From: a virus
Taxonomy: Duplodnaviria > Heunggongvirae > Uroviricota > Caudoviricetes
Direction: 5' to 3' (one strand)
IMG/VR virus record: IMGVR_UViG_2636415673_000001
Location: 1 to 42,350 of that record
Length of the DNA stretch: 42,350 nt
Of this stretch, positions 2,201 to 25,533 are shown in pieces. The position numbers were made by a program, and so were the translations under genes. Each line of letters starts with the position of its first letter. Within the stretch, counting starts at the first letter, position 1. Below the pieces are notes generated by a model. It worked only from the letters and a program-made list of their open reading frames with translations. It was not told where the DNA came from and made no database searches.

Positions 2201-3667
2201 ATGACTTTAAATATAAAAAAAACAGCCATATATATCATTGGATTTATATTCTTGACTTTCTTCTACGCCTCGATTTCAAAACAGATTTTGCCAAGTTCGG
2301 ATGCTGTTTCTGGACTTCTTGAGGGTAAGGACATTGCGGACGGAAATTGGACGCTTAGTGGATGGTATCTCTCTACAGTATCATTCTATTTTACAGACAT
2401 AATATGGTACGGGCTTGCTTCAAAGGTATTCTGGTACGGACAGTACCAAGCATACTGCATACCGGCAATTATGTATTCAATGGTTACATTGATGACATTT
2501 TATCTTTCAAAAGAAAGGCTTTCATCGTTATGGGCCATTTCATTTTGCGTTGCGCTGCCTTCTGGGTTTGCAGTATTAAACGTATTAATACCTGTGATAC
2601 ATGTCGGCACATATGTATCCATGTTGTTTTGCTTCATAATGTTAGACAATTTTTCCAAAACAAGATCGTTAATTTCTCTATCTCTTTATATTTTAGTGTT
2701 AGTTCTAGCTTGTTTCAGTGATGACATCATAAAGCTACTCATTATTGCACCAGTAGCAATATCATCAGTGGTTTTTATAGTAAAAACCAAAAGCCAAAAA
2801 AATCTGATCATACTAGTTGCAACTATATTTGCATATGTTGCATCAAAAATTATGACCATGTACGCAAGAGCTCATAACTGGTACATTTTGCCAGGCGTTC
2901 CAGATCCAACATTTGTTGCATTTGATGATATCCTGAATAATTTATACTTATTCGTAAAAGGATTCCTCCTATACAGTGGAGCTTTCTTCTTTGGCAAATC
3001 ACCTTCTGATATTACAGCGCTTATTTCTGTTTTTTGTTTTGTTGTAATGATTTTACTTCTTATATTAGTTGCAATGTCAGTAAAGGAAATATTCAAAACC
3101 TCCATGGTCAATATGGCTATATGTATAGCTTGTATTATAATGATACCAGCATACCTTGCAAGTAACCGTCCAATAGATGAATGGACTATAAGATATATCG
3201 TTCCATTTTTTATACTAGCACCTGTTGTTATTGGCAGATCTAACAACTCCAGAGGGTGGAAATTCATCGCATTAGGGGTTGTTACAACATTTATTCTCTT
3301 TTGTTCTATTTATATGCATGAAAAAAAAGACAATTCTAATGATATTATAAATCAGATAAAACACACTGTAAGGCAGAATAACCTCACAAACGGGTATGCA
3401 TCTTTCTGGTTTGCTTCATCAGCAAGTATAGATGGAGACATATCAATTGCTCCGATTGATGTAAACCGAGGTTTGAATATACTTGCATGCAATAAATGGT
3501 TGTCAAAAAACTATTGGTATGAGCGCGGAGGAAATTTCATAATTACAGATGATGAGGTTATGAGAAATATAACAATTAAAGAGATTGGTAATCCATCAAA
3601 GGTTATTGACGTCGGAGATAAGAAGATTTTTGTTTACGATAAAAACATTACATTCAACTGCAATTAA
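2201..3667 (+). CDS. GtrC-type serotype-specific O-antigen modifying glycosyltransferase (polytopic membrane protein)
   Basis: 488 aa, many TM segments, strongly AT-rich; third position of a gtrAB operon between attachment site and tailspike as in P22/Shigella serotype-converting phages. Confidence 0.7.
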   Translation: MTLNIKKTAIYIIGFIFLTFFYASISKQILPSSDAVSGLLEGKDIADGNWTLSGWYLSTVSFYFTDIIWYGLASKVFWYGQYQAYCIPAIMYSMVTLMTFYLSKERLSSLWAISFCVALPSGFAVLNVLIPVIHVGTYVSMLFCFIMLDNFSKTRSLISLSLYILVLVLACFSDDIIKLLIIAPVAISSVVFIVKTKSQKNLIILVATIFAYVASKIMTMYARAHNWYILPGVPDPTFVAFDDILNNLYLFVKGFLLYSGAFFFGKSPSDITALISVFCFVVMILLLILVAMSVKEIFKTSMVNMAICIACIIMIPAYLASNRPIDEWTIRYIVPFFILAPVVIGRSNNSRGWKFIALGVVTTFILFCSIYMHEKKDNSNDIINQIKHTVRQNNLTNGYASFWFASSASIDGDISIAPIDVNRGLNILACNKWLSKNYWYERGGNFIITDDEVMRNITIKEIGNPSKVIDVGDKKIFVYDKNITFNCN

Positions 3668-3675
3668 TTAAATAA

Positions 3676-3694
3676 GCGGGTGCTAAGCACCCGC
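3676..3694. terminator. Bidirectional stem-loop between convergent gtrC and tailspike
   Basis: Perfect 8-bp stem gcgggtgc/gcacccgc with 3-nt loop, A/T-rich on both sides, between two convergent stop codons. Confidence 0.6.
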
Positions 3695-3698
3695 ATTA

Positions 3699-5462
3699 TC
3701 ATACACTTGTACCATCCGCCCTCTTCCATTCAGATGATACTGTGTTATACCATATTGGAAGACCTAGCGTTGTATCATAATACATCTGCCCACTGACTGG
3801 TGCTGTAGGGCGCTGCGCAGTCGGTCCACGGTTTTGATAAGTCGTCTGAGTATCATTAACACCTAGACAAGCTATAATACGGTTTTTGCGTTCTTCCGAT
3901 GTATTAAGGTAAATCTTGGTTGTCATATCGCTATCGAAAGAAACGCCATTGATGGTTATGCCGTTACAGTTATCGCCGGGGTCTGTGATCCCAAGTGGTT
4001 GCACGTAGTAACCCCCCCGGATATAAGATGTACCCATAGCACCGCCGATGACAGATACCTCTTTGCAATTTACCAACGATAGACCGCCAGTCTTATTTCC
4101 GTTGTATATATTATTCGACAAAGAGCATTGTTCAGCATTTTCCAACACCATGCCAAACTCACCACAGTAGGTGATAGTGTTTCCTGTAAACGTCAGGTTT
4201 CTAGCGCCTTTAATATTAATTCCACGGGCGTTGTTTGGTCTCCCAGCACTAATAATGTTACCGCTGATGGTAGCGTAAGCTAGACTCTCCATATCAAAAG
4301 CAGTACCGTCGATGGCATCGAAAACGCTATTTGAAATTATAACCGGATAACCCGCGAATTGGTCTGTTCCGCCAACCCCACCAAGAGTTGTACGTGTCCT
4401 TACCGCGTAATCTCCAACAAACATCGTACATTGGCTGATATATAAATCGGCGGTATCCCATACGTCAATCGGAGAGTTAGAACTGAAACACATAAGAAAC
4501 TTAGGTGATTCGCTGATGAACTCCACAGTATTTAAATCCGCACGCCCCAAGAATGGACTACCCCAACGTTCGCACCGGAAGAAGTTAACGTAATGGTAGT
4601 TGTTCATAGTAGTTTGTGCGTTATAGAAAAACACCCGATCAAACTCTAAGTTCTGGACATGACGACAAACAATCCAGTTAATCAGCACGTCGGATGATAT
4701 GACTACATCTCGGAATATGCCACCCTGTTTCCACTGACTAGCAGCCGGGCCAGACCCTGTAAGGGTAAACATAGTGAAGGTTGAATCAGAACCTAGATAT
4801 TTAATCTCTGGATTTTTTGCGTTACCAATAATTTCATATTTTGCTGGAAGCTCAATGTCTCTGGTCTTCATTCCATATATGCCAGAACCTTTCAAGTGAA
4901 TTTTTCTTGCGCCTGAAGCGAATGCCTTCTGAAAGGCTATGCTATTATCTGTTATTCCAGAATCGTCTTTGCCACCAAAGTCTTCCAAAAATACAAAATC
5001 ATCCAGCTTTTCTTGTACATTCCTGAAGACAGCACCATCAACAACAGATGGTAATCCATACTTATACTTTACTGTTTCAGGGAATGCCCCGCTTGCAAAC
5101 TCTCCCTCTAGCTCATGCCGGAACTGGTCCGGGTCATACTTGATAATGTTTGGATAGTAGAACTGCTGTGTGCCATATGCGTCATACACAGCCATTGAAT
5201 GTCCCTGTACGGTAACGAACTTTGCAATCTGTCCGTTATATACCGGATAACCAGCAGCGTTAATGATGATTGGTTGCGAAACAGGAACGTGAGAGCCGTC
5301 TTCATTCTCCATATAAACCTGAATCTGGTTTTCTGGATTTACCGGGTCAGTATCAATTTTACCGATATAAATTTTTCCATTGGCAACCGCTTTAAAAGAA
5401 CGCGCCATAGTGAAGAGTTGCGAAGGCATACTCACTACAACATTGGCTGTAATGTCTGTCAT
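3699..5462 (-). CDS. Tailspike protein: P22 gp9-type head-binding N-terminal domain fused to a different receptor-binding/beta-helix domain
   Basis: First ~110 aa match remembered P22 tailspike N-terminus ([34 protein letters not shown]...); remainder unrelated to the P22 endorhamnosidase domain. Confidence 0.85.
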
Positions 5463-18685: not shown

Positions 18686-20185
18686 TTAAGTTCTCCGTGC
18701 GATGGGCCTGATTGGGGCTGGTATCTTTTTCTCTTTTGGTTTTTTGATGTCGCGCATCATTTTTGCGAAGCGGCGCATCATGTATGCATAGCGAACGGCG
18801 GATAGCACGTCGTCGTTAAGCTTGACGATTTTCCCGTTTTCATCACGGTGATAGAGGCGGAACTCCTCAAAGAATGGCTCACAGGTGTTGAATACTTTGA
18901 AGCGACCGTCGAGCATCATGTCTCGCAATTCAGTGATGCCAGGCTCAACAGCATTACCTCCATCAGGCCATGTTGCATGCTCCTGCAACATCATAAAACC
19001 AGCGTCCGCGTACTGCCCTTTAAGCTGCTCACCGCCGCCCTTCTCGTGCTGGTTTCCGTCATGAGGCCATGCGGTTGGCACTTTATGCGCCCATGATTTA
19101 ACAGCTCCCCACGCCTGAACGGCTGTCTTCTCTTTCGCCTTCCACACGCGTGAAACGTAGATTGTGTCTGCGTCCTTATCCCACCAAAGCTGAACCTGCG
19201 CCTGCGGGTGATCCCATCCGAAATCCATCCCGCCAATCACGTAGAAGTGATCAGGACACTCGAACGGCTGACACTTAATAGTCTCTTCCGGTATCTGGAA
19301 GATTCGACCACTACCCATCGTAGGAATACCGCGAGCACGCGCCTCTCTCTCATGCTCAGGATAAGATGCGATGATTTGCTCTTTCTGTTCGTCTGTGTAG
19401 TGCTCAGCGTCGTAGATGGTCATGTTGACCACTTTCTGCGACTTGCTGGGATTCTTCAGGAACTTGGTAACAACGTCAGACATCCCCATCAGCGGGGTAA
19501 ACGTCAGAATTGAGAATTGACCGTATTTGTTGGTACGGGTAAGACCTTCGCCATAAATGCTGTATGGTGGCTCTTCGTCAAACCACACGCCGTGGATTGT
19601 GTCACCCTGCCAGCGAGCACGGCCTTGCGAGTATGGTTTGAAGTAGCAGATTGAAATGCCATCTTCAACGCCATCAGCCGTGTGATGCTTAACCAGAAGA
19701 TGATCAACAAGGTTCGGAAAGAAAGGAGACTTCTTCCAGCTAATGATGTCCTCTTTCGGTATTGAACCGTATCCCGGTTCATCATTCTCTTCAATACGAC
19801 CGCACAGGATGCGTTGAGTCGTTTTGGTTACCGTCTCGTTTGTCTCGCCGCCAATCCAGAAGACAACAGGCTCATAGAAACGCTTACCTTTCCACTCACC
19901 GCCATATTTACCATCAGCAGGATAGCCTTTTGTGCCCGGATAACGCCCTGTAAGGTGAAACGCGACTTCAGCAGCACCAGTAAATGACTTACCAAGCTGG
20001 TTACCAGCCATAAAACATCGCTCTGGGTAGTCATGTCCGGCGTCGATGAACTCACGCTGTTTGCTGTATGGCGTAAATTCATATAGCAGGTGTGTGTTCC
20101 GGTAGTTCTCTTCTTCTTCGAGTAGCTCGAGCAACTCGATTTGCTCTTCGTCGCTCAGGTTATCAAGAATCGCGTCCAGTTCCAC
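18686..20185 (-). CDS. Terminase large subunit gp2
   Basis: 499 aa, P22 TerL-like; overlaps 3' end of TerS. Confidence 0.95.
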
Positions 20186-20651
20186 GGTTGAATAGCTCCT
20201 TGATACGAGAGCGTCGCTTATCGCGATCTCCCTTATCAGGTGTCACGTCTTCAACTTGCGACTGCTCTTTGAGGCCCAAATCACGGGCGATGATGTTAGC
20301 GTTGAGAAGGTCAGCGGCTGCGCCAGAGAATTTCTGATCGTAGATGACCTGCTCTGCTCGCGTAACGACTTCAGATAAATCTTCTCTCAGGCGATATGTG
20401 CGCCATGTTTCAAGCGTCACATCAATGAACAGAGTGAGGCCGGTAATGGTCATCGCTCGCATCTTGGCGATAGGTTCTTGTATCACTTCACCCTGATACG
20501 AGAACGCCTTCATCTCCCATAGCGGGTTAGCTTCCACCCACTCGAAGTATTCACAACAAGCAGCCCACAGCGCCTCAGGCGATTCGAATTTAGGGTTTCG
20601 CCCATGACTACTGCGGGCCTCCCAAAATCGGTTGCCCTTTGGTGCTGCCAT
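20163..20651 (-). CDS. Terminase small subunit gp3
   Basis: 162 aa matching P22 gp3; contains pac sequence. Confidence 0.95.
20361..20384 (-). other. pac: pac site (headful packaging initiation)
   Basis: Minus-strand gaagatttatctgaagtcgttacg inside the TerS gene, matching the P22 pac consensus as remembered. Confidence 0.7.
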
Positions 20652-20745: not shown

Positions 20746-20940
20746 TTACTTAGCTCCTTCCTGCTTGCCTGTGTTTGATGTCGTTTCAGCAGCAGCCCCA
20801 GAGCAATTAATGCTACCCGCAACACCATATCCATAACCAGTCTTGAAGAAATTGTTGCCAGTAAATTGGTTAACAATCTTCCCGCAGCACGGGCAGCGTT
20901 GGCATTGGCAATAAGGGGATTGATTATTCCAGTGATACAT
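20746..20940 (-). CDS. Small Cys-rich hypothetical protein
   Basis: 64 aa from internal ATG; CQCQRCPCCGK cluster; overlaps neighbour start. Confidence 0.35.
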   Translation of the reverse strand: MYHWNNQSPYCQCQRCPCCGKIVNQFTGNNFFKTGYGYGVAGSINCSGAAAETTSNTGKQEGAK

Positions 20941-21313
20941 CTTGTTTCTCCTGAATGAATGGCAGGAAGTGATTAACCATCCTGTCCAGCATGTAACAGT
21001 ACGTCTCGTTGGCATCTTCAGGGCTTGTCGTCACGCCGACATCAGAGCAAACGTAAAAGCAGACGTGGGCGCACTCATGAACGAGCGTAGCGATCTGCTG
21101 ATCGAATACTCCAATCAGATAGCATCGCTCACCCGTATCAGTGTTTTCATAGTTGCTTGCAAGCCCAAGATTGAATGGCTTCTCATCCCCGCTGCCGCCA
21201 AGGAATTTATCAGCGTGCTGAAACTGTTCTCTGGTTGTTGCGAGGTAGACGTGTGCACTTTGAAACAGCGGAATGGTGAACGCCGGGAGTTTGTGCCATT
21301 TGGCCTTAGCCAT
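20924..21313 (-). CDS. Small HExxH-motif protein, paralog of 5903..6268
   Basis: 129 aa; HECAH motif and shared blocks with 5903..6268. Confidence 0.6.
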   Translation of the reverse strand: MAKAKWHKLPAFTIPLFQSAHVYLATTREQFQHADKFLGGSGDEKPFNLGLASNYENTDTGERCYLIGVFDQQIATLVHECAHVCFYVCSDVGVTTSPEDANETYCYMLDRMVNHFLPFIQEKQDVSLE

Positions 21314-21314
21314 A

Positions 21315-21557
21315 TCACACTCCAGCGGTGAACAGGTCTAACGCTTCCTTCGATTTACGCACCGCTTCAAATGTGCGGATCGTGATATCCGAATTAGCGC
21401 CGCCTGACTGGAAGTGAATTTTGAATAGCTCAAGCTTCAACTCGTCAGTGCCAATGAACTGAAATGCTTCTTCTGCGGCTGCGTTCTGGTTCATGACCAG
21501 TTTGTAAATCTCTAACTGGAATTTCTGTTCTTCAGTCATGGGAATAATCTCTGCCAT
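21315..21557 (-). CDS. Hypothetical protein
   Basis: Start placed at ATG with GGAG RBS (MAEIIPMTEEQ...); coupled to downstream HExxH gene. Confidence 0.5.
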   Translation of the reverse strand: MAEIIPMTEEQKFQLEIYKLVMNQNAAAEEAFQFIGTDELKLELFKIHFQSGGANSDITIRTFEAVRKSKEALDLFTAGV

Positions 21558-21704
21558 TGTTGGCTCCATTTATCCGTTAAAAGGGATATCAGTTAAGTTA
21601 TCCCGTGTAGGGTATAAGCCATTATCAAAGCCACTCTGTAGGGAATGGCTTTTGTGATGGCAATAAAAAAGGCCGCCTGAGCGACCTTTCATTTTTCATC
21701 CGTT

Positions 21705-21923
21705 TTAATCATCTGGGTAATTAAGCGGCATCCAGTGTGTAACCTTGCTTGCTCCTGAATCGATGAATGCCTTGGTTCTCTGCCAGTAAGAGCCCATACA
21801 TGATAGTTTGAACACGTCACCAGTATCAGTAAGAGCTATAACCTCTTTAGACCACATTCCTTCTTTGCTTTCTGGTAGCCGGTGTTCAACATTGACCCAT
21901 TGGTTTCCGTTATCATCCATCAC
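21705..21923 (-). CDS. DUF551-like small protein
   Basis: 72 aa; C-terminal W-MPL-P motif shared with C-terminus of 38333..38878; followed by hairpin plus U-run near 21665..21695. Confidence 0.55.
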   Translation of the reverse strand: MMDDNGNQWVNVEHRLPESKEGMWSKEVIALTDTGDVFKLSCMGSYWQRTKAFIDSGASKVTHWMPLNYPDD

Positions 21924-22159
21924 AACCTCGTCTTGTTGTTCGCCATAGATTCAGTGGCAGGCGGTGACGAGTCCGCTTTTCGGGAGCTACCCTAGCCACT
22001 GCTTGATTCTATCCGATGTCTTTCCATCAGTCCGCCACCACAAAGAATCTTTTTTGCCATAAGGCTGGAGGTTCATCTTTCAGTGGCTGCCAGTGTTATT
22101 TCCCCACTTACTGGCTTGGGTTGTTTCGTGGTACTGCTGTTAATTAGTGAGTCCTGGGA

Positions 22160-22645
22160 TTATTTCAGTTCGTTACCAGGAATTTCTTTTAGCTCTTTCA
22201 AATGACAACGATTGAGGCTAAACCACTCCCCGTGCGACCTATAGTTGTAATATTTTTGGTGCAATTTGGTTTCAAGCTCTCTATCGGCCGGAATCTTTGC
22301 AATTAGATTTAGCTTCCCACCACTCATGCGAGATATCTCTGAAATTCGTTTATTAACCCTGCGACTAAACCCTATTTTTGTTAGCCCACTATCTTCAGCA
22401 TGCAGAACGTACACATATGATTTTTGCGAAGCACTGGGTGCGACTTTGTTGTAATTAATCATGTCAAACATGAAGCCTTGCTTTAGCAAAGTTTCAAAAA
22501 AGATAGAATTAACACACCCATTCCTTCTCAGCTCTGCACTTAGCTTGTCAATTTCCTCTATGATGTCGCCAGACCCCTTTCCACTTATAAGAAAATCTTG
22601 GTACATGCGACCAATTCTTGAGGTAATTTCAACAAAGTTATTCAT
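22160..22645 (-). CDS. T5orf172 / GIY-YIG-like domain protein (putative nuclease), AT-rich moron
   Basis: 161 aa; motif YVYVLHAEDSGLTKIGFSRRVNKRISEI...GEWF typical of T5orf172-type GIY-YIG domains; AAGGT RBS. Confidence 0.6.
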   Translation of the reverse strand: MNNFVEITSRIGRMYQDFLISGKGSGDIIEEIDKLSAELRRNGCVNSIFFETLLKQGFMFDMINYNKVAPSASQKSYVYVLHAEDSGLTKIGFSRRVNKRISEISRMSGGKLNLIAKIPADRELETKLHQKYYNYRSHGEWFSLNRCHLKELKEIPGNELK

Positions 22646-22790
22646 AGCGTTTACCTTTTAGAAAGATGAGCCTGTTCGCACAGAAAAGCCGCCCCGAGAT
22701 GGTCGCCACCATATACGGCAGTTCTCAGGCTCAGCTTTCTGAAAGACTCGGGATTGTTACGCGCTGCGATGCGCGGTTTACTGCAGATGT

Positions 22791-22815
22791 AAAAAAGCCC
22801 CGCAAATGCGAGGCT
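22791..22815 (-). terminator. Intrinsic terminator downstream of Rz/Rz1
   Basis: Minus-strand agcctcgc-attt-gcggggct hairpin (one mismatch) followed by UUUUUU. Confidence 0.55.
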
Positions 22816-22989
22816 AAATCTTGGTATTTGTAATGAACTGGCTCTTATCTCAACGCAGCCCCTTACCGCGCGCCAGATGCTCAATATCAAGCATCAGCAA
22901 TGAGATGTTTAATCTGGATTCACTCCAGAAGTGATCACCACCCTGTCTACAGAGCCAGATGTGAAGGATGATGAGTAAAATTATCGCTA

Positions 22990-23457
22990 TCATCGAAGGC
23001 ATTGCGTCCTGATGTATTCCTGAAGCGTTCTCAGTGCTGTTTGGTCGCTGATGATTCCGTCCCGGATACCGAGAACGTTTCGTCCAGCAACTGGAGAGAG
23101 TTCGACGGTGGCATCATTGCCCATGCCGGAGGCGCTGGAGGTTTCGGCTGAGGATGGCACAGGGCATTTTCCTTTGACGAGCACCCGACCACCATTATCA
23201 AGCTTGCGCCGAAGAGCATCATTTTCAGCTTTCGCATCAGCTAACTCCTTCGTGTATTTTGCATCGAGCGCAGCAACATCACGCTGACGCATCTGCATGT
23301 CAGTAATTGCCGCGTTCGCCAGCTTCAGTTCTCTGACATTTTTGTCGCGCTGGGCTTTGTAGGCGATGGCGTTATCACGGTAATGATTAACAGCCCACGA
23401 CAGACAGACGACGATGCAGATAATCAGAGCGGAGATAATCGCGGTTACTCTGCTCAT
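22990..23457 (-). CDS. Rz: Spanin inner-membrane subunit Rz
   Basis: 155 aa; lambda Rz-like N-terminal TM and coiled coil. Confidence 0.9.
23031..23237 (-). CDS. Rz1: Spanin outer-membrane lipoprotein Rz1 (embedded in Rz, +1 frame)
   Basis: Lipobox VVGCSS and Pro-rich stretch; fully embedded in Rz as in lambda. Confidence 0.8.
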
Positions 23458-24479: not shown

Positions 24480-24555
24480 TGGTGCTGGTTAACGGACTTG
24501 AACCGCTACCCATTCGCTTACAAGGCGACTGCTCTACCATTGGAGCTAAACCAGC
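24480..24555 (-). tRNA. tRNA-Thr (anticodon UGU), phage-borne
   Basis: 76 nt folding by hand into a cloverleaf: 7-bp acceptor GCTGGTT/AACCAGC, D-stem GCTC/GAGC, anticodon loop CTTGTAA, T-loop TTCAAGT, encoded CCA; one G-A mismatch at top of anticodon stem. Confidence 0.65.
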
Positions 24556-24560
24556 ATATT

Positions 24561-24635
24561 TGGCGGGACAGCGTGGACTCGAACCACGATAAGAAGGTTA
24601 ACAGCCTTCCGTAATGACCTTTATACGACTGACCC
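24561..24635 (-). tRNA. tRNA-like gene, anticodon GUU (Asn); possibly degenerate
   Basis: 75 nt; anticodon arm GAAGG-CTGTTAA-CCTTC and T-arm CGTGG-TTCGAGT-CCACG perfect, encoded CCA, discriminator G; U-U mismatches in acceptor and D stems. Confidence 0.5.
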
Positions 24636-24909: not shown

Positions 24910-25533
24910 CTAACGTGTGACCGCATTCAAAATGTTGTCTGCGATTGACTCTTCTTTGTGGCATTGCACCACCAGAGCGTCATACAGCGGCTTAACAGTG
25001 CGTGACCAGGTGGGTTGAGTAAGGTTGGGGATTAGCATCGTTACAGCGCGATATGCGGCGCTTGCAGGCATTCTTGAATAGCCGACGCCTTTGCATCTTC
25101 CGCACTCTTTCTCAACAACTCTCCCCCACTGCTCTGTTTTTGCTATATCAACCGCACGGCCTGTACCGTGACAATCTCTGCATCTTGCGCCCGGCGTCGC
25201 GGCACTACGGCAATAATCCGCATAAGCGAATGTTGCGAGCACTTGCAGTACCTTTGCCTTAGTATTTCCTTCGAGCTTTGCCACACCACGGTATTTCCCC
25301 GATACCTTGTGTGCAAATTGCATCAGATAGTTGATAGCCTTTTGTTTGTCGTTCTGGCTGAGTTCATGCTTACCGCAGAATGCAGCCATTCCGAATCCGG
25401 CTTGTGATTGTGCCATCCCCATAGCAGCCATCACATCAGTACCGGAAAGAGAGTCAGAAGCCGTGGCCCGTGGTGAGTCGCTCATCATCGGGCTTTTTGG
25501 CGAATGAAATTTAGCTACGCTTTCGAGTCTCAT
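24910..25533 (-). CDS. Q: Late antiterminator Q
   Basis: 207 aa essentially identical to remembered lambda Q. Confidence 0.95.
   Translation of the reverse strand: MRLESVAKFHSPKSPMMSDSPRATASDSLSGTDVMAAMGMAQSQAGFGMAAFCGKHELSQNDKQKAINYLMQFAHKVSGKYRGVAKLEGNTKAKVLQVLATFAYADYCRSAATPGARCRDCHGTGRAVDIAKTEQWGRVVEKECGRCKGVGYSRMPASAAYRAVTMLIPNLTQPTWSRTVKPLYDALVVQCHKEESIADNILNAVTR

Follow-up and report, generated by a model that had tools for sequence, protein, structure and literature searches.

We found that a gene in the virus record IMGVR_UViG_2636415673_000001 of IMG/VR (Caudoviricetes; positions 1 to 42,350, with this whole stretch of 42,350 nt referred to below as the window) encodes a protein of 161 amino acids (aa) with two domains: a C-terminal domain of the T5orf172 class, from the GIY-YIG superfamily of endonucleases, and an N-terminal domain resembling hkbL, a small protein of phage HK620. 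The window is a P22-like (Lederbergvirus-type) Escherichia coli prophage, and the gene occupies a variable slot downstream of the lysis genes. Our tentative reading is that the product is a targeted endonuclease, synthesised late in the lytic cycle, that serves in conflicts among mobile elements, in a homing-like manner or against a competitor. The gene is real and already annotated and the class of its fold is known; what we add here is the identity of the N-terminal domain, the exact boundaries of the exchanged cassette and a survey of the other genes that can fill the slot, one of them Tad2-like.

The initial annotation, made from the sequence alone, had assigned a T5orf172/GIY-YIG-like domain to this protein. 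Pfam agreed with this assignment: aa 77-154 matched MUG113 (PF13455; E 4.9e-13; 49.9 bits against a cut-off of 22.3) and T5orf172 (PF10544; E 8.6e-10; 39.5 bits against a cut-off of 20; profile positions 2-95 of 101), and, judged by these profile scores, the matches are far above chance. An NCBIfam scan of the protein gave no match. We aligned 19 full-length homologues and 52 domain homologues, down to ~25% identity; P0014, a 165-aa chimera of DUF1364, Rz and the nuclease C-terminus seen in a single contig, is a probable deletion or assembly product and was kept out of the alignments. Residues Y79, K90, I91, G92, R100, E125, L128, H129, E140, W141 and F142 were invariant or near-invariant in both sets. 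All motifs of the family series were present: a hydrophobic residue followed by Tyr, K-I-G-x-[ST], an Arg eight residues past the Gly, E-x-x-L-H and G-E-W-F. The core fold, a three-stranded sheet with flanking helices (beta-beta-alpha-beta-alpha), is that of the GIY-YIG superfamily. A comparison listing for the domain was headed by At-HIGLE (6.1) and two chains of SLX1 (6.0 and 5.9), followed by the I-TevI catalytic domain (5.0), CMoRE/PD-T4-3 (4.8) and AtGRXS16 (4.6), with EF2693, Eco29kI, UvrC and T4 EndoII at lower ranks. With the canonical GIY-YIG domains of SLX1 and I-TevI among these matches, the domain checks thus did recover a nuclease fold. The C-terminal domain very probably has the GIY-YIG fold.

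Some of the conserved residues are putative catalytic ones. A profile comparison gave a weak match (E 0.13) to 1zg2, a GIY-YIG protein, in which VYxL was set against GIY and KIG against YIG; the invariant Y79 faced the GIY-box Tyr, and R100 the catalytic Arg. The spacing of R100 from G92 is the same as in I-TevI, where the catalytic Arg is R27; E125, also invariant, stands at the start of helix 2, the place expected for the Glu, at the position of E75 in I-TevI and of E180 in Odn of phage ICP1. Mutation of E180 abolishes cleavage by Odn (PMC8263062). The protein is probably an active nuclease.

The description of the gene as encoding a nuclease domain therefore stood as far as it went, while the second domain had been missed: the N-terminal third of the protein is hkbL-like and is shared with a stand-alone gene found in the same slot. 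HK620 hkbL could be aligned to it by blastp (33% identity over 55 aa, E 8e-11), the N-terminal domains of the family were matched to hkbL by hhalign (probability 98.6%, E 9.8e-16, 68 columns), and the PHROG matches between the N-terminal domain and phrog_875, the hkbL family, were reciprocal; Pfam gave no match for this domain. Escherichia, Enterobacter, Klebsiella, Citrobacter and Salmonella prophages commonly encode proteins of the hkbL type, ~85 aa long, as stand-alone products. In the 120 of 138 hkbL hits that were listed we saw no fusion to an effector domain other than that of the T5orf172 family; one 123-aa protein carried PF10549 (ORF11CD3), possibly owing to annotation read-through from the adjacent KilA-N gene. 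A search of the PDB had also suggested similarity of aa 17-56 to designed pentatricopeptide repeat (PPR) proteins (E 3e-6). We rejected it as an artefact of a single segment being compared with 8-10 identical repeats: each aligned stretch on its own had an independent E-value >200, Pfam reported no PPR, and the resemblance is that of a generic helical hairpin.

The open reading frame (ORF) was found exactly where it had been placed, at 22160-22645 on the minus strand, with an ATG start and the motif block SYVYVL...KIGFSRRVNKR...GEWF. It had been called AT-rich, correctly so: its GC content is 0.389 (0.395 at third codon positions), lower than that of the window (0.472) and of Rz, R and TerS (0.50-0.52). 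The protein has 99.4% aa identity to gp68 of Salmonella phage epsilon34, to g341c gp64 and to the product of a gene of phage NM-3, and 751 bases around the gene match the chromosome of E. coli LSC52 at 100% nucleotide identity; the LSC52 copy is annotated as WP_001058930.1, with the RefSeq name 'GIY-YIG nuclease family protein'. There was a full-length match to PHROG 4284 (function unknown; E 3e-75), along with weaker ones to PHROG families labelled endonuclease or homing endonuclease. A word-indexed protein search returned close relatives only; the ~15 distant full-length homologues were reached by an exhaustive hidden Markov model search over 1.84 billion representative proteins, in which 15,441 proteins had the C-terminal domain and only ~15 the full two-domain architecture. 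A second subfamily, with HK106 gp64 as its representative, shows 31-32% identity, and intermediates were seen at 61% and 49%.

We observed 15 alleles among 32 loci, with 18 variable sites, 15 synonymous and 3 non-synonymous, and all 32 copies intact. This synonymous excess and the intactness of all copies indicate that the gene is functional and under strong purifying selection. There is one copy per genome. In the record NZ_CP026085.1, an assembly of 4.83 Mb under the label E. coli DH5alpha, the nuclease gene is part of a complete P22-like prophage; strain label or assembly is probably not that of standard K-12 DH5alpha, and we discarded this record as evidence on standard K-12 strains.

The gene had been located between the lysis cassette and the terminase. 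It does follow Rz/Rz1, but it does not adjoin the terminase, as the DUF551 gene, the DUF2560 gene and a 129-aa ORF intervene before gp3. In nearly all of 80 IMG/VR loci with an identifiable upstream gene, as well as in Erwinia aeris, the gene lies 290-420 bp after the spanin genes, and this position is kept whichever packaging module comes next: P22-type gp3, lambda-type Nu1 or HK97-type HNH. The fixed place after the spanin genes holds in many lambdoid phages and in further temperate phages of enterobacteria. Two of the loci listed are exceptions. In an Oceanisphaera prophage (L090, Oceanisphaera submarina) a 35%-identical full-length homologue (3001-3465) is situated outside the lysis-terminase context and directly upstream of a gene (3562-4488) whose product reads like a KilA-N domain protein, again an association of T5orf172 with KilA-N; in a high-GC locus (L086) the match is limited to the C-terminal domain.

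The borders of the exchanged segment are sharp on both sides. Upstream, blastn homology to phages without the gene breaks off at 22640/22641 in HK620, JEP4 and HK106 and at 22638 in PhiR70_1. This upstream flank exists in three alleles (83%, 88% and 100% identity); in JEP4, which has Rha in the slot, the leader is 100% identical over 22646-22791. Downstream, the breakpoint is 22149/22150, and homology resumes 10 nt past the stop codon. Judged from these alignments, the exchanged unit is exactly the ORF, between conserved flanks. The downstream 140-bp block (22010-22149), shared by a great number of lambdoid phages that are mosaic elsewhere, is mostly annotated as non-coding and contains the start of a truncated ORF (MAKKILCGGGLMERHRIESSSG*); it has no notable RNA fold (z-score -0.83) and no Rfam match, and may serve as a linker for recombination or as a regulatory element so far overlooked.

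The slot after Rz/Rz1 had been described as variable, and the comparison with other phages agrees: they hold Rha, KilA-N with hkbL, a Tad2-like gene or the other T5orf172 subfamily. At least 80% of a query spanning the gene was present in 58 of 5426 complete E. coli genomes, and at least 80% of a query made of the joined flanks in 367; given this sporadic presence, the gene is not universally conserved at its position. Among the matches listed, those of phages and E. coli to both flanks always came in two pieces, with spans of 819-952 bp in the phage records and 820-946 bp in the E. coli genomes and a gap of 490-620 bp; in every match listed the slot was filled, by Rha, KilA-N (with or without hkbL), a 'DNA-binding protein' or a T5orf172 subfamily. 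The hkbL gene comes directly after the KilA-N gene in this slot in HK620, HK97, mEp235, Stx2 phages and others. The slot of phage Kapi1 is taken by Kapi1_043 (L006 1704-2225, minus strand), whose product has a domain like that of Tad2 (Thoeris anti-defence 2; PF11195, E 3.9e-26). The nuclease gene is one of at least four alternative cassettes of the slot. A small ORF similar to Kapi1_043 was also seen within the lysis gene cluster of another locus (L037 2728-2985). The KilA-N protein hkbK of HK620 (L002 3008-3505) and the Rha protein of JEP4 (L005 631-1149) share a C-terminus, ...QI[TS]IPGLP[GK], and show cross-matches to phrog_10441 and phrog_518; because of this common C-terminus, the occupants look like swaps of N-terminal domains on one C-terminal module.

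Expression signals were considered next to the gene. The intrinsic terminator reported upstream at 22791..22815 was recovered as a stem-loop at 22815..22796 (minus strand) of 8 pairs, 6 of them G-C, followed by TTTTTT. The annotations of epsilon34, HK106 and mEp235 list this element as a rho-independent terminator, and it is conserved in lambdoid phages whichever gene fills the slot. Consensus scans found no sigma-70-like promoter on the gene strand between the terminator and the ATG, either at 9/12 or at a relaxed 8/12, and the terminator scan found no terminator following the stop codon. The gene is co-oriented with the late operon. In lambdoid late transcription Q-modified polymerase reads through terminators. 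Since there is no such promoter between terminator and ATG and the gene is co-oriented with the operon, its expression probably depends on the Q-antiterminated late transcript. With the consensus scans and the known course of lambdoid late transcription taken together, synthesis in lytic growth only, not in the lysogen, seems on balance likely.

The late operon thus encodes an accessory protein in which a small domain of three helices, similar to hkbL, is joined to a GIY-YIG endonuclease domain of the T5orf172 class that retains all the residues invariant in its family. The rest of our reading is tentative. The gene would be transcribed only when Q-modified RNA polymerase passes the terminator, so that the nuclease would be made late in lytic growth. 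The C-terminal domain would cut DNA by the usual GIY-YIG chemistry, in which Y79, R100 and E125 would be the counterparts of Tyr, Arg and Glu in I-TevI or Odn, and the N-terminal domain would give recognition of a target or a partner. One could speculate that the DNA being cut belongs to a rival element in the same cell. The rival could be a related lambdoid genome with another cassette, in which case repair from the conserved flanks would bring a homing-like gain in inheritance; alternatively, it could be a satellite or a competitor, as for ICP1 Odn.

Known T5orf172 proteins point in this direction. Odn is a proven nuclease that needs the conserved Glu and is directed at a satellite (PMC8263062), and genes of the T5orf172 type cluster around those for terminase and mark the boundaries of recombination (PMC10448857); on these precedents, mobile-element conflict would be the most likely arena of our protein. 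The non-specific GIY-YIG nuclease of SNIPE is toxic unless spatially restrained (PMC13190303), which would fit the confinement of a cytosolic nuclease to a doomed late-stage cell. We also counted the Tad2-like anti-defence gene in the same slot of Kapi1 in favour of conflict. Still, for our protein a role in homing or in conflict between elements is a possibility that we put, at best, on a par with the tentative reading as a whole.

Several observations weigh against this reading. The Tyr of the 'YIG' box is replaced by an invariant Lys (K90-I-G) in every aligned homologue, and we identified no conserved motif-E Asn; elsewhere in the GIY-YIG superfamily, too, alternative core residues and varying motifs are documented (PMC8263062, PMC1564403). 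Foldseek with the full-length model gave no match. The protein has no recognisable sequence-specific DNA-binding module (Zn-finger, helix-turn-helix or NUMOD), while Zn-finger domains are present in 87% of the homing endonuclease genes of the T5orf172 type (PMC10448857). As hkbL also exists as a stand-alone protein without a nuclease, the N-terminal domain may bind protein rather than DNA. The proposal of late-only synthesis depends on the lack of a consensus promoter. The joined-flanks query revealed no contiguous empty site among the matches listed (23 phage records and the 367 E. coli genomes with most of the query). Finally, the polymorphism of the slot is one of replacement, not insertion, and ordinary lambdoid recombination via the flanks explains the mosaicism without any nuclease activity.

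The alternative that survives best, although we regard it as rather unlikely, is that the gene is an ordinary mosaic cassette for the phage's own lytic programme, acting in the late degradation or processing of host DNA or as a regulator or DNA binder in the manner of Rha or KilA-N, with T5orf172 mainly binding DNA. It is suggested by the alternation of the gene with those for Rha and KilA-N(+hkbL), which fill precisely this position in other phages, by the hkbL-like domain held in common with the KilA-N cassette and by the family member in Oceanisphaera that adjoins a KilA-N gene. T5orf172, KilA-N and Bro-N are found together in viral proteins, and the first prediction for them was DNA binding; CapR is a relative of T5orf172 homing endonucleases domesticated as a repressor (PMC8096241); CapR, however, lost the T5orf172 domain that our protein keeps. 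Purifying selection and the lack of decayed copies are more in keeping with a useful gene than with one that is purely selfish, whereas the gene is dispensable, most related phages being without it. Moreover, the strictly invariant residues align with the catalytic Tyr, Arg and Glu, which pure DNA binding would not need, and with no known function for Rha or KilA-N in this slot an 'equivalent' role is not yet a mechanism.

The initial annotation had suggested either a homing-endonuclease-like element or a defence effector. The nuclease domain and the variable slot behind this suggestion held up, but neither role was singled out by our data and both were weakened. A classical free-standing homing endonuclease gene, whose product cuts a specific site in genomes without the gene and which is then copied into the break, is in our view unlikely. 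T5orf172 genes are proposed homing endonuclease genes, found near the terminase in 35% of neighbourhoods and at exchange boundaries (PMC10448857), and our gene, situated between the lysis and packaging modules with recombination breakpoints at the ends of the ORF, has the location expected of them (cf. PMC10448857). It has low GC, a fixed position and a sporadic presence, and its nucleotide identity is at least 99.2% across backgrounds with different Rz alleles (sharing just 53-94%) and packaging modules. What speaks against classical homing is that the same 23 phage records and 367 E. coli genomes, with most of both flanks, offered no empty target site, and that a cut site in the leader, which is identical in the Rha-carrying JEP4, would sit in the carrier too; the missing Zn-finger, helix-turn-helix or NUMOD module, the single copy per genome and the lack of any frameshifted or truncated copy among the 32 also count against it.

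In a wider version of the conflict reading, which we regard as improbable, the post-spanin slot might be a dedicated locus for mobile-element conflict with interchangeable effectors (Rha, KilA-N+hkbL, Tad2-like, hkbL-T5orf172), the hkbL-like domain being a shared adaptor to one target. This target would be a factor of the host or of a rival phage, or a DNA site, and the effector would be the KilA-N protein in trans or T5orf172 in cis. If so, the protein would be a programmed late nuclease, a temperate-phage counterpart of ICP1 Odn, directed at induction against lambdoid prophages or satellites in the same cell, which it would destroy or convert.

Least probable of all is a prophage defence effector (moron), made in the lysogen and cutting superinfecting phage DNA like CMoRE/PD-T4-3 or SNIPE: a GIY-YIG domain in a prophage, low GC (0.39 against 0.47-0.52), the sporadic distribution, the existence of single-gene GIY-YIG defences (PMC12923530, PMC13190303) and a weak hit in PADLOC to PDC-S57, a candidate system (E 4e-4, 18 bits), are set against the lack in our scans of an own sigma-70-like promoter even at relaxed stringency and of a downstream terminator, the co-orientation of the gene inside the late operon, the absence from the protein of modification-sensing, transmembrane or DUF4041 domains, and the danger that a constitutive cytosolic nuclease without an immunity partner or targeting domain would pose to the host. 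PADLOC gave no match at E <=1 to any named system and no model of a validated system matched; besides PDC-S57, only one other candidate model, PDC-M64B (E 0.035), was weakly matched. Defence of the lysogen is thus less likely than a role in late conflict.

Comparison with known systems places the protein as follows. The closest are epsilon34 gp68 and g341c gp64, the same gene in the same slot after Rz/Rz1 and the terminator, with the same flanks; compared with epsilon34, the window copy has an extra insertion of ~373 bp (the DUF551 gene and the int-alpA RNA) just downstream and differs in nothing else of substance. The epsilon34 genome paper does not discuss gene 68 (PMC2629481). HK106 gp64 has the same two-domain architecture and the same place after Rz and the terminator and before the 140-bp block, while its subfamily differs in sequence (31-32% identity, as given above) and in occurring in HK97-like and lambda-like siphovirus backgrounds (HNH or Nu1 next) as well as in P22-like ones. 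In HK620 the pair hkbK and hkbL (KilA-N and the 85-aa phrog_875 protein) occupies this slot too, with the same flanks on either side, and its hkbL is homologous to our N-terminal domain; the same pair is present in HK97, HK022, mEp235 and Stx2 phages. The pair differs in being two genes without a nuclease domain, hkbL ending in a basic tail where our protein has T5orf172. We found nothing relevant on hkbK/hkbL in the literature.

Odn (Gp88) of ICP1, the only T5orf172 nuclease with activity tests that we found in the literature (PMC8263062), and the homing endonuclease genes with T5orf172 in ICP1 and T5-like phages share with our protein a C-terminal T5orf172 domain that has conserved Arg and Glu residues and, at the N-terminus, a module for targeting, which in our protein is putative; like our gene, they belong to phages, where packaging genes are often their neighbours (PMC8263062, PMC10448857). 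Odn has a RepA_N DNA-binding domain and the homing genes mostly have CapR/DUF723/DUF4397 Zn-fingers, whereas our protein has a 68-aa hkbL-like helical domain and no Cys pairs. ICP1 falls below tblastn detection at E 1e-5, and it is lytic while the window phage is temperate. In contrast to I-TevI, SLX1 and UvrC, to which identity is 11-18%, our protein has Lys for the second Tyr and no identified Asn, and it has the family-specific H129 and G-E-W-F motif. CMoRE/PD-T4-3 and SNIPE have modification-sensing, transmembrane or DUF4041 parts that our protein lacks; its gene is in a late operon and has no promoter of its own. By family our protein is T5orf172/MUG113, and by fold GIY-YIG; it belongs neither to CMoRE or SNIPE nor to the homing endonucleases that combine T5orf172 with Zn-fingers.

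Nucleases of the T5orf172 class occur commonly in phages and few have been tested, the best-studied cases being those from the lytic vibriophage ICP1. The family described here is a compact 161-aa version in temperate phages that are well studied and genetically tractable, P22-like epsilon34 and HK97-like HK106. If the nuclease acts on rival lambdoid genomes or satellites, this would explain the fast turnover of the slot and would provide a simple experimental handle on the origin of lambdoid mosaic boundaries; if it is just another accessory nuclease, the result is routine annotation.

Table 1. Features of the window around the nuclease gene
Feature	Position	Strand	Details
Q	24910..25533	-	
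tRNA-Thr(TGT) and tRNA-Asn(GTT)	24480-24635	-	between Q and holin gene
Rz	22990..23457	-	Pfam Phage_lysis E 1.7e-31; ORF list
Rz1 lipoprotein ORF, embedded in Rz	23031..23237	-	ORF list; epsilon34 and LSC52 annotations
50-aa ORF, homologue of epsilon34 gp67	22850..23002	-	ORF list; annotations of epsilon34 and LSC52
Intrinsic terminator, downstream of spanin genes and 50-aa ORF	22786..22815	-	terminator scan
Upstream conserved flank (predicted recombination arm)	22641..22815	.	common to phages with Rha or KilA-N; homology stops at first ORF bases (ATGAA)
Leader, terminator to start codon	22646..22785	-	Shine-Dalgarno-like AAGG at 22654-22657, 8 nt before ATG
Nuclease gene ORF, 161 aa	22160..22645	-	ATG 22643-22645; stop TAA 22160-22162
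hkbL-like three-helix domain, aa 1-68	22442..22645	-	helices 3-21, 25-41, 47-68; AlphaFold model, predicted local distance difference test (pLDDT) 85.9
T5orf172/MUG113 domain, GIY-YIG superfamily, aa 75-155	22181..22423	-	beta-beta-alpha-beta-alpha-beta
Downstream conserved flank, 140 bp	22010..22149	.	94-98% identical in P22, HK97, HK022, HK620, Sf6, HK106, mEp phages and others
int-alpA RNA (RF02996)	21940-22002	-	Rfam 45.1 bits against gathering score 35.8; E 2e-8; full model length
DUF551 gene	21705..21923	-	
DUF2560 gene	21315..21569	-	
129-aa ORF, phrog_1365	20924..21313	-	
Small terminase subunit gp3, P22-type	20163..20651	-	Pfam GP3_package E 3.5e-33; LSC52 annotation
Large terminase subunit	18686..20185	-	

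The order of elements on the minus strand is Q, tRNA-Asn/tRNA-Thr, holin, endolysin, Rz with Rz1, the 50-aa ORF, the terminator, the nuclease gene, DUF551, DUF2560, the 129-aa ORF, gp3 and the large terminase (Table 1). A second variable slot, 21637-22009, is adjacent to the first: this segment of ~373 bp, with the DUF551 gene and, just upstream of it, the int-alpA RNA, is missing in most other carriers of the nuclease gene, where alignments jump from 22010 to 21636. The tRNA pair is present in phage Kapi1 too and absent from epsilon34.

A plus-strand ORF of 55 aa (22666..22833), antisense to the leader and the terminator, has a helix-turn-helix-like stretch, SQAQLSERLGIV, and is annotated (as hypothetical) only in phage JEP4. 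We rejected it as a partner of the nuclease gene; it has no Pfam or NCBIfam match and lies within the flank common to phages without the nuclease gene, and thus it is not specific to that gene. It is probably not a gene. The product of the 129-aa ORF has an HExxH-like motif (LVHECAHV) and a weak Pfam match to SprT-like (E 0.14); it may be a small zincin-like protein encoded just upstream of the terminase genes.

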